Part shown: positions 16,686 through 19,600 of the stretch, piece by piece
Layout of the letters: each line of letters begins with the position of its first letter
How positions within the stretch are numbered: position 1 is the first letter of the stretch
Assembly: GCF_013315695.1 (NCBI RefSeq)
Contig: NZ_CP054353.1
Reading direction: 5' to 3' (one strand)
Origin: Escherichia coli
GTDB lineage: Bacteria > Pseudomonadota > Gammaproteobacteria > Enterobacterales > Enterobacteriaceae
DNA length: 64,000 bases
Program-made: the position numbers

Positions 16686-19600
16686 TCATGTACGAGCTAA
16701 ATGTTACTCCGTTAAAATAAATTAGTAACAAACGCCCTATAACGTACTGAAAATTATGCCTGTGATCTAGCGCCAAAAATCAGTATTTCGGCGTGAACTC
16801 GCAAAATATTAACGATTCAGCCGTGATAGTGGGATAAACACCTTAGAACGCCGGATAAAGACTGATAATTGTCTTCGACGGTCAGGTAAAACGAGACATC
16901 GCCCCGGTACGAATCACTACTTAACATTAAATTAACTTATACAATTCAGTTGCTTCAGTAGTATTGATGCTGATACGGCTGTTTTTTTAAGCATAGACGG
17001 TCATTTGAGCAGGATTAAAATTGTCTTAAGGAATGTGATATGAAAAATGACGCAGACAGTTACACCGTTTAAATGCAATAATCAGCCACGTTTCTCGTTA
17101 ATAACAATACCAGTACCTGGTTTGCGCAAGGCGAAGGATTATTTTTATGAAGCTTAAGAACACCCTCCTGGCGTCGGCACTGCTTTCTGCTACGGCATTC
17201 TCCGTTAACGCAGCAACAGAACTGACACCGGAGCAAGCGGCAGCGGTTAAACCTTTTGACCGTGTAGTGGTTACCGGTCGTTTTAATGCTATTGGCGAAG
17301 CGGTGAAAGCCGTTTCTCGTCGCGCAGATAAAGAAGGTGCCGCCTCTTTTTATGTTGTCGACACTTCTGATTTTGGTAACAGCGGTAACTGGCGTGTGGT
17401 CGCTGACCTCTATAAAGCCGATGCTGAAAAAGCAGAAGAAACAAGTAATCGCGTAATTAACGGAGTTGTCGAACTGCCGAAAGATCAGGCCGTTCTGATT
17501 GAACCGTTTGACACGGTCACCGTCCAGGGCTTCTATCGTAGCCAGCCAGAAGTCAATGATGCCATCACCAAAGCAGCAAAAGCGAAAGGTGCCTACTCTT
17601 TCTACATCGTTCGTCAAATCGATGCCAACCAGGGCGGCAACCAGCGTATTACTGCATTCATCTATAAAAAAGATGCTAAGAAACGTATCGTCCAGAGCCC
17701 GGATGTGATCCCGGCAGATTCCGAAGCAGGACGTGCAGCTCTGGCTGCCGGTGGCGAAGCTGCGAAGAAAGTTGAGATCCCGGGTGTTGCGACTACCGCA
17801 TCACCAAGTTCTGAAGTCGGTCGCTTCTTTGAAACCCAGTCATCAAAAGGCGGGCGTTACACCGTCACGCTCCCGGATGGCACTAAAGTCGAAGAACTGA
17901 ACAAAGCGACCGCAGCGATGATGGTCCCGTTCGACAGCATCAAATTCTCTGGCAACTACGGCAACATGACCGAAGTCTCCTATCAGGTTGCGAAACGTGC
18001 CGCGAAGAAAGGTGCTAAGTATTACCACATCACCCGCCAGTGGCAGGAACGTGGTAATAACCTGACCGTCAGCGCAGATCTGTATAAATAACTATTCAGT
18101 TACTCCTATAAGGCGGCTTGATGCCGCCTTTCGCATTTTTAGTCACAAATTTCCCCGCGACCATTGCATGCAGACACATCTCTTCGTAAAATCCCGCGCT
18201 TCAGTGGCAAACTCCATTTTTATGCGTTTTGCCCTAATATTTATTCTTCTTATCACGTTTTAATCACTGGATATCGATGGAAAAGAAACTGGGACTGAGC
18301 GCACTCACCGCGCTGGTATTAAGCTCAATGCTGGGCGCGGGTGTTTTCAGTCTGCCGCAAAATATGGCGGCAGTTGCCAGCCCGGCAGCACTGCTCATCG
18401 GCTGGGGTATTACTGGCGCTGGCATTTTATTGCTGGCCTTTGCCATGCTGATCCTCACGCGCATTCGTCCCGAACTTGACGGCGGTATCTTTACCTATGC
18501 CCGCGAAGGGTTTGGCGAGCTAATCGGCTTTTGTTCCGCATGGGGATACTGGCTGTGCGCGGTCATCGCCAACGTCTCCTATCTGGTGATCGTTTTTTCC
18601 GCGTTAAGCTTTTTTACGGACACGCCGGAATTGCGCCTGTTTGGCGATGGTAATACCTGGCAATCGATCGTCGGTGCATCGGCTTTATTGTGGATTGTTC
18701 ACTTTTTGATCCTGCGCGGGGTGCAAACCGCTGCCAGCATTAACCTGGTGGCAACACTGGCAAAACTGTTGCCGCTGGGTCTGTTTGTTGTACTGGCGAT
18801 GATGATGTTCAAACTGGATACCTTCAAGCTCGACTTCACCGGACTTGCACTTGGCGTACCCGTGTGGGAACAGGTGAAAAACACCATGCTGATCACCCTG
18901 TGGGTTTTCATTGGTGTGGAAGGTGCCGTGGTTGTTTCTGCGCGTGCGCGTAATAAACGTGATGTTGGCAAAGCGACACTGCTGGCGGTTCTCTCCGCTC
19001 TGGGCGTTTACTTGCTGGTAACGCTGCTTTCGCTGGGCGTGGTGGCACGTCCTGAACTGGCTGAAATTCGTAACCCGTCAATGGCCGGTCTGATGGTGGA
19101 AATGATGGGACCGTGGGGCGAAATCATCATCGCTGCCGGTTTGATCGTTTCCGTTTGCGGCGCGTACTTAAGCTGGACCATCATGGCGGCAGAAGTTCCG
19201 TTCCTGGCCGCCACTCATAAAGCATTCCCGCGCATTTTTGCGCGCCAGAACGCACAAGCTGCGCCATCCGCTTCACTGTGGCTGACCAACATCTGCGTGC
19301 AAATTTGTCTGGTGCTCATCTGGCTGACCGGTTCCGATTACAACACATTGCTGACCATCGCCTCAGAAATGATTCTGGTGCCCTATTTCCTGGTCGGCGC
19401 GTTCTTGCTAAAAATCGCAACCCGTCCACTGCATAAAGCGGTAGGTGTCGGTGCCTGCATTTATGGCTTATGGTTATTGTACGCCTCTGGTCCAATGCAC
19501 TTGCTGTTATCCGTTGTTCTGTATGCACCGGGGCTGCTGGTTTTCCTGTACGCGCGTAAAACGCATACCCATGATAATGTACTGAATCGTCAGGAAATGG

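Follow-up and report, generated by a model that had tools for sequence, protein, structure and literature searches.

The ydgH gene of Escherichia coli, at positions 17147-18091 of a 64,000-nucleotide (nt) stretch of DNA (assembly GCF_013315695.1, contig NZ_CP054353.1; the whole stretch is called the window below), encodes a protein made of three alpha+beta units of the DUF1471 (PF07338) type, which arose by ancient duplication. A preliminary description of the window, made from the DNA alone, had placed ydgH at these coordinates and had read its product as a triplicated YdgH/BhsA/McbA domain, and both statements are borne out here. Taken as a whole, the evidence is very probably best explained by YdgH being the product of a core gene, a Sec-exported triple-DUF1471 periplasmic protein, with an envelope-binding role that is at present a proposal. 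The three-domain architecture of YdgH is already known: it was published by 2014 at the latest, and the Pfam and NCBIfam annotation incorporates it. Only mildly new are a longer boundary of the repeat and a conserved hairpin element that precedes units B and C.

The identity of the gene is straightforward. An open reading frame (ORF) occupies exactly the coordinates above, and its product matches the NCBIfam equivalog model NF040471 (ydgH_STM1478, "DUF1471 family protein YdgH") over residues 1-314 and profile positions 1-319 of 319, with a score of 560 bits (E=1.5e-168) against a curated cutoff of 350 bits. At the DNA level, a 1.6 kb segment containing the gene matches E. coli chromosomes at 100% identity, and in these the locus is annotated "ydgH: DUF1471 family protein YdgH". 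Since the NF040471 match exceeds its cutoff and the DNA is identical to annotated ydgH, the window gene is ydgH, an ordinary and well-annotated core chromosomal gene of E. coli. Published proteomics and tagging show that it is expressed. The same 1.6 kb query was found in 5423 of the 5426 complete E. coli genomes, with at least 80% of its length present in 5421 of them.

Evidence for the triplication and limits of the repeated unit

The coding sequence and the parts of its product can be laid out as follows, all on the + strand.

17147..18091, +: ydgH coding sequence, from the ORF list, with an ATG start, 314 amino acids (aa) and a stop codon
17147..17212, +: Sec signal peptide, aa 1-22 (MKLKNTLLASALLSATAFSVNA / ATEL), with a basic N-region (K2/K4), a hydrophobic core, a VNA/A signal peptidase I site (residues 20-23) and no lipobox cysteine
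17216..17416, +: DUF1471 unit A, aa 24-90 (Pfam core aa 35-90), Pfam E=7.2e-20, isoelectric point (pI) 6.1
17468..17668, +: DUF1471 unit B, aa 108-174 (Pfam core aa 119-174), Pfam E=2.1e-19, pI 8.2
17669..17854, +: B-C linker, aa 175-236, a partly conserved IPADSEAGRAALAxGG helix followed by a variable low-confidence stretch, with no Pfam match and no similarity to the units
17855..17887, +: R237-YTVTLPDGTK element, aa 237-247, directly upstream of unit C, conserved, a predicted beta-hairpin
17888..18088, +: DUF1471 unit C, aa 248-314 (Pfam core aa 259-314), Pfam E=3.9e-22, pI 9.5, net charge about +4

The three motifs on which the preliminary description had based the repeat are each present exactly three times in the translation: FD-x-[VI]-x-[VF]-x-G at residues 37, 121 and 262, G-A-x-x-[YF] at residues 64, 148 and 289, and DLYK/FIYK/DLYK at residues 87, 171 and 311. 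The Pfam search finds the same number of domains, returning three PF07338 stretches in the whole protein (203.2 bits, E=4.3e-61). Searched as separate pieces, aa 35-90 scored 71.2 bits (E=7.2e-20), aa 119-174 scored 69.7 bits (E=2.1e-19) and aa 259-314 scored 78.5 bits (E=3.9e-22), the gathering score being 27 bits, and each piece covered the profile from position 1 or 2 to position 55 of 55. Two pieces drawn from the linker (aa 188-243 and aa 175-258) matched no Pfam family.

Formal self-alignment gave the same picture. A plain self-BLASTP search of YdgH returned the identity diagonal only, which is uninformative, and it was replaced by Smith-Waterman alignment (BLOSUM62, gap penalties 11/1) of four non-overlapping segments of the mature protein, with 2000 composition-preserving shuffles for each. 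Unit A against unit B scored 140 (z=25), unit B against unit C scored 105 (z=18) and unit A against unit C scored 89 (z=14), and for each of the three pairs none of the 2000 shuffles reached the observed score. The linker (aa 186-240) scored z of about 0 against every unit in the same test. A chance or compositional origin of the repetition in Ala/Lys-rich low complexity, which the richness of YdgH in A, K and G and the bare diagonal of the self-BLASTP search might have suggested, is therefore refuted by the shuffles, by three independent Pfam matches with E values of 2e-19 or better and by the superposition of two of the three units on solved structures of the same fold, while the equally A/K-rich linker shows no such similarity.

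The similarity is visible at the protein level only. Among the three units, the DNA retains residual scraps, the longest in-register family being 25 nt at 68-76%, and this residual similarity points to an old duplication. Neither the DNA repeat search nor the alignment of the three units gave any sign of recent duplication or of repeat-mediated instability inside the units.

The preliminary description had put the repeat at about 55 residues, which fits the length of the Pfam core model but falls short of the repeated unit itself. The copies are already similar from a shared EL motif onwards (ELTPEQAAAVKPFD, ELPKDQAVLIEPFD and EELNKATAAMMVPFD), which stands some 11 residues before the PFD motif and the Pfam core, such that the unit is about 67 aa long. 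At this length the pairwise identities are 33-39%, and the added portion corresponds to the extra N-terminal helix of the solved structures. The word tandem, also used in the preliminary description, holds for the presence of three copies but not for a strict head-to-tail array, the gaps being uneven, with A and B 17 aa apart and B and C 73 aa apart. The units also differ in charge, with the pI climbing from 6.1 in A through 8.2 in B to 9.5 in C.

Structural evidence covers the units to different degrees. The only sequence matches of YdgH in the PDB are 2M2J, a nuclear magnetic resonance (NMR) structure from Salmonella that matches aa 18-91, and 4EVU, a crystal structure from Salmonella that matches aa 244-314; these Salmonella domains I and III were described as monomeric (PMC4092069). 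An AlphaFold2 model of full-length YdgH, made from 29 diverse homologues, contains three confident beta-alpha-beta-beta domains, the predicted order being helix-strand-helix-strand-strand in all units, with the predicted local distance difference test (pLDDT) mostly at 75-93. In Foldseek, model unit A superimposed on 2M2J with a template modelling (TM) score of 0.90 and a root-mean-square deviation (rmsd) of 1.2 A, and model unit C on 4EVU with a TM score of 0.95-0.97 and an rmsd of 1.0 A. The SrfN structures (2JNA and 2MA8) also matched the model, and beyond DUF1471 structures the search with the whole model returned nothing at significant E-values. On this basis the DUF1471 alpha+beta fold is present in all units, as a prediction from the model in the case of unit B, since solved structures exist in neither species for domain II or for the full-length arrangement. 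The linker was modelled with a helix at residues 193-201 and as disordered at residues 216-236 (pLDDT below 50).

The signal peptide of E. coli YdgH was assigned by reading features of the sequence. For the Serratia orthologue, SignalP gives 98% for residues 1-22, the protein fractionates with the periplasm and function is lost without the signal (PMC11705850). The mature protein has 292 aa, and YdgH has no cysteine at all. We found in it no other catalytic domain of Pfam or NCBIfam and no cofactor or redox motif.

Age and distribution of the three-unit architecture

The YdgH family is narrow: when 1.84 billion cluster representatives were searched exhaustively with HMMER, only 129 matched at E<=1e-3, many of them fragments. 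The named members belong to the Enterobacterales (Salmonella, Citrobacter, Raoultella, Budvicia, Thorsellia and others), with the addition of Frischella perrara of the Orbales, and several distant matches come without a known taxon. Full-length three-unit proteins extend down to about 36-47% identity, including those of Budvicia, Thorsellia and Frischella perrara. In the Budvicia, Frischella and Thorsellia proteins, which are orthologues at identities down to 40-46%, the best score of every E. coli unit is with its positional counterpart. Because same-position units match best even in such distant orthologues, the triplication predates the split between Enterobacterales and Orbales. An old triplication agrees with the statement made in PMC4092069.

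The length of the B-C linker varies across the family. It is near absent in two 266-aa relatives from Logan assemblies that have three units (P0172 and P0189), and there are insertions in relatives of 370-377 aa. Within E. coli, one 285-aa allele from NCBI (P0042) carries an in-frame 29-aa deletion in the linker, with RIVQSPDVIPADSEAGRAALAAGGEAAKK missing, which corresponds to approximately window positions 17681-17767. Short direct repeats, GC(T/G)AAGAAA, lie 87 nt apart on either side of the deleted segment, consistent with slippage. To judge by this allele, natural YdgH can probably do without part of the linker.

Departures from three units were also seen. Two 234-aa relatives from Logan assemblies (P0239 and P0244) consist of a B-like and a C-like unit only; P0239 has two Pfam stretches, and P0244 matches more weakly. 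One 398-aa protein (P0001), from a single 1757-bp ENA metagenome contig, has four PF07338 stretches, with unit B duplicated; at the junction stands another YKADAEKAE, the sequence usually found after unit A. This protein could be a real product of unequal crossover or an assembly chimera of two strains. Two further candidates were discarded: a 920-aa protein with seven stretches (P0231), which is an unrelated repeat protein matching through low-complexity SKGG-YT, and P0125, a scrambled chimera of YdgH fragments that is probably a misassembly.

A possible envelope role for units B and C

The preliminary description called the function of YdgH unknown. This still applies to the molecular mechanism. 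The literature does, however, report where YdgH resides, its oligomeric state, which domains it needs and what follows from its deletion (PMC11705850; bioRxiv 10.1101/2021.04.16.440252). Eletsky 2014 (PMC4092069) described YdgH/SssB as a DUF1471 subfamily with three repeated domains and an RcsF-like fold that does not have the RcsF cysteines. In Serratia, a transposon screen hit ydgH, and its deletion lowered susceptibility to cefoxitin and third-generation cephalosporins (Lazarus 2021, bioRxiv 10.1101/2021.04.16.440252) and raised susceptibility to sodium dodecyl sulfate (SDS) and quaternary ammonium detergents (bioRxiv 10.1101/2021.04.16.440252). Published work likewise reports that ydgH deletion lowers susceptibility to second- and third-generation cephalosporins with AmpC activity unchanged. 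YdgH was then shown to be a soluble, compact monomer in the periplasm, a localisation necessary for its function (Lazarus 2024, PMC11705850). In that study the units were named DUF1471-A, -B and -C, and B, the linker and C were necessary and sufficient for function, while A was dispensable for the cefoxitin phenotype (PMC11705850). The deletion left ompC/ompF mRNA, the lipopolysaccharide (LPS) pattern and sigma-E activity unchanged, and suppressors that restored detergent resistance mapped to yhdP (two independent), lpxM, mepM, ftsI, ftsA, proQ, pnp, rapZ, fadR and others (PMC11705850). The problem posed is a modest one, that of an abundant, conserved periplasmic protein whose loss alters cephalosporin and detergent susceptibility. 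The longer repeat boundaries, the element that precedes B and C and the natural relatives with only a B-like and a C-like unit may be of help with its mechanism.

Units B and C are each preceded by a conserved element that the Pfam model does not cover. Upstream of unit C, RYTVTLxDG is the joint most conserved 12-residue stretch of YdgH, tied with a segment inside unit C; among 14 diverse orthologues V240, T241 and L242 are invariant, and Y238, D244 and G245 are nearly so. It lies largely outside the 4EVU construct as well, which starts at D244 and has ordered density from K247. AlphaFold2 places strands at residues 239-241 and 247-250, which would form a hairpin with the first strand of unit C, the pLDDT being moderate to low at its start. 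Upstream of unit B, an R-x-I-N-G106 turn (R-x-I-N-G-V-V-E-L; aa 101-108, 17447-17470) includes G106, which is invariant in the same 14 orthologues. Unit A begins straight after the signal peptide and has no equivalent of either element. The portions of the YdgH literature consulted (PMC4092069, PMC11705850 and bioRxiv 10.1101/2021.04.16.440252) make no mention of RYTVTLxDG.

The functional core of YdgH could conceivably be a composite B-C module that takes in the R237-YTVTLxDG hairpin and R-x-I-N-G106, and not the DUF1471 domains as Pfam defines them, with the two elements perhaps forming an interface for an envelope partner, although we regard this as doubtful. The suggestion is made because function needs B and C but not A, because relatives of 234 aa with B-like and C-like units only occur in nature, and because the elements precede B and C only. 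If true, it would explain the published domain requirements, and the 234-aa relatives mirror the minimal functional construct of PMC11705850. The elements, these relatives and the charge gradient fit a composite B-C functional surface and are no proof of it.

For the protein as a whole, we tentatively propose that YdgH is a non-enzymatic, multivalent periplasmic binder or scaffold that tunes the outer-membrane barrier, a reading that we hold possible without giving it the better part of the probability. The basic B-C module, including the RYTVTLxDG hairpin, would interact either with an anionic component of the envelope or with a machine of envelope biogenesis, candidate targets being phospholipid or LPS traffic or peptidoglycan remodelling, and this interaction would in turn tune the barrier properties of the outer membrane. 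The tandem array might provide avidity or bridging that the single-domain DUF1471 paralogues lack. A binder, and not an enzyme, is proposed because YdgH has no cysteines and no catalytic domain, because the pI rises from A to C and because domain III binds sulfate and sucrose octasulfate. In the Salmonella domain III crystal sulfate ions are present, and sucrose octasulfate binds a separate basic patch in NMR titration (PMC4092069). An envelope role is suggested by the detergent and cephalosporin phenotypes together with the suppressors in yhdP, lpxM, mepM, ftsI and ftsA, which represent changes in the transport of phospholipids, the acylation of lipid A and the enzymes of septal peptidoglycan.

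Several observations weigh against this proposal. No binding partner or ligand of YdgH has been found, and published panels of double mutants covering porins, LPS core, Bam, chaperones, rcsF and other DUF1471 genes showed no interaction (PMC11705850); for example, ydgH combined with bsmA, yhcN or yjfN gave none (PMC11705850). Polyanion binding by a domain of pI 9.5 may be nonspecific, as its authors pointed out (PMC4092069), and the sulfate-site residues K253, H294, D311 and Y313 are only partly conserved in distant orthologues. The predicted TM score (pTM) of the AlphaFold2 model is 0.42, such that neither the arrangement of the domains nor any composite B-C surface is predicted with confidence and no conclusion can be drawn on a compact or an extended arrangement. 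Finally, a sigma-E promoter for ydgH is cited in PMC11705850, and a simple scan of the 470 bp upstream of ydgH revealed no convincing sigma-E consensus, the single match being a poor one about 370 bp upstream. The scan looked for GGAACTT, a spacer of 15-17 nt and a TCAAA-like element with up to 2+1 mismatches, and is too crude to refute the cited promoter.

An alternative that we consider improbable is that YdgH/SssB is primarily a secreted virulence effector with host cells as its target, where it might for example bind sulfated glycosaminoglycans. Paper titles alone (PMC9973271 and PMC12243464) place YdgH in studies of outer-membrane vesicles and of macrophage vesicles, but presence in vesicles would be expected of any abundant periplasmic protein. 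The Salmonella sssB mutant is transiently attenuated in mice (PMC4092069), and the binding of sulfated saccharides by domain III (PMC4092069) would suit such a role. However, ydgH is present in essentially every E. coli genome, commensals included (5421/5426), and also in insect-gut and environmental Enterobacterales and Orbales. The known phenotypes are independent of a host and need periplasmic localisation (PMC11705850), while secretion was of low abundance and seen in a regulatory mutant only, and searches for host targets failed (bioRxiv 10.1101/2021.04.16.440252).

It is slightly less probable still that YdgH is an oxidative-stress or oxidoreduction protein linked to the neighbouring pntAB transhydrogenase genes. 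The deletion mutant shows a transient growth lag in 2.5 mM hydrogen peroxide (about 36% at 1 h and about 2% at 5 h), and ydgH is associated with an "oxidoreduction" iModulon (PMC12356324). In addition, pntA is the divergent upstream neighbour, and the DUF1471 proteins YhcN, BsmA and BhsA, whose NCBIfam models match YdgH below threshold, are tied to peroxide or chlorine stress. The peroxide effect is small and transient, however, and an altered envelope barrier explains it equally readily. Cysteines, a catalytic domain and any cofactor or redox motif are all lacking in YdgH; the protein is periplasmic, whereas the chemistry of PntAB is cytoplasmic and of the inner membrane, and the two genes are divergent and not in one operon.

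Locus, expression signals and comparison with related proteins

In the window, ydgH is flanked by a pntA-like ORF (15090..16676, - strand) and a permease ORF corresponding to ydgI (18277..19659, + strand). The pntA-pntB pair and ydgH are divergently transcribed, and the arrangement, pntBA in one direction and ydgH ydgI in the other, is that of E. coli, with an identical annotated locus in NZ_CP146670.1. Three candidate expression signals were read around the gene.

17053..17082, +: sigma-70-like promoter candidate from a consensus scan, CAGACA-18 nt-AATAAT with TG before the -10 hexamer (extended -10)
17134..17138, +: Shine-Dalgarno-like AAGGA, 8 nt before the ATG, read from the sequence
18110..18140, +: intrinsic-terminator-like hairpin AAGGCGGC-TTGAT-GCCGCCTT (18110-18130), 8 pairs of which 6 are G-C, with a T-rich tail

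The candidate promoter would put the start of transcription at about 17089, some 58 nt before the ATG. A Salmonella ydgH reporter, through which the small RNA SdsR represses ydgH, spans -58 to +60 (PMC5137417), and the 5' untranslated region of about 58 nt predicted here agrees with that boundary. The agreement is suggestive only, and the promoter is weak evidence because sigma-70-like sites in the region, as counted in the consensus scan, are no more numerous than expected by chance. A second sigma-70-like candidate lies at 16994-17021, also in the 470-bp divergent intergenic region between pntA and ydgH (16677-17146). Downstream, the terminator-like hairpin starts 19 nt past the stop codon, a position that speaks for ydgH being monocistronic and not joined to ydgI (18277..). 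The same conclusion was reached for Serratia ydgH (bioRxiv 10.1101/2021.04.16.440252).

Two other ORFs were noted. Antisense to ydgH is a TTG-initiated ORF of 182 aa (17069-17617, - strand), which is absent from the annotation of the E. coli record inspected and looks like a mechanical ORF rather than a gene. Between mdtJ and tqsA, a 56-aa "hypothetical protein", WP_001303517.1, is annotated in the matching E. coli record at locus positions 1628-1798 (- strand), which by offset corresponds to approximately window positions 12330-12500.

Among known systems, RcsF resembles YdgH in the topology of its alpha+beta fold, including a beta-bulge in strand 3 (PMC4092069; PMC12282094). This resemblance could suggest that YdgH is an RcsF-like sensor of envelope stress, one through which a signalling pathway learns of damage to the outer membrane or to LPS, a reading that we think about as unlikely as a link to the transhydrogenase. 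YdgH differs from RcsF in being soluble and triplicated and in having neither the lipobox nor the four cysteines, and there is no detectable sequence relationship between the two. With no cysteine, a VNA/A signal peptidase I site and an insignificant Foldseek match (E=0.23), YdgH falls outside the RcsF group: it is not an outer-membrane lipoprotein, and the disulfide-forming cysteines are essential to RcsF. Sigma-E activity is unchanged by ydgH deletion (PMC11705850), the rcsF ydgH double mutant shows no interaction (PMC11705850), and for a sensor of this kind no downstream partner of YdgH is known and no signalling phenotype has been seen.

The single-domain paralogues of E. coli are closer. 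YhcN, BhsA/YcfR, BsmA/YjfO, McbA/YbiM, YahO, YbiJ and RclB share the Pfam domain and are, like YdgH, small Sec-exported periplasmic proteins, and stress and biofilm phenotypes are described for single-domain DUF1471 paralogues (PMC4092069). They have one domain of about 90 aa in contrast to the three of YdgH, and they have neither the long linker nor RYTVTLxDG. The NCBIfam models for YhcN, BhsA, BsmA and McbA match YdgH with E values from 1e-24 to 5e-5, below their cutoffs, and the RclB model likewise stays below its cutoff. Since YdgH falls below the curated cutoff of every single-domain model, it belongs to a separate subfamily.

Closest of all is YdgH/SssB of Salmonella enterica (STM1478; P0005), an orthologue from which E. 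coli YdgH differs by scattered conservative substitutions and in nothing of substance, the two proteins being 90% identical, of the same length (314 aa) and made up of the same three units and linker.

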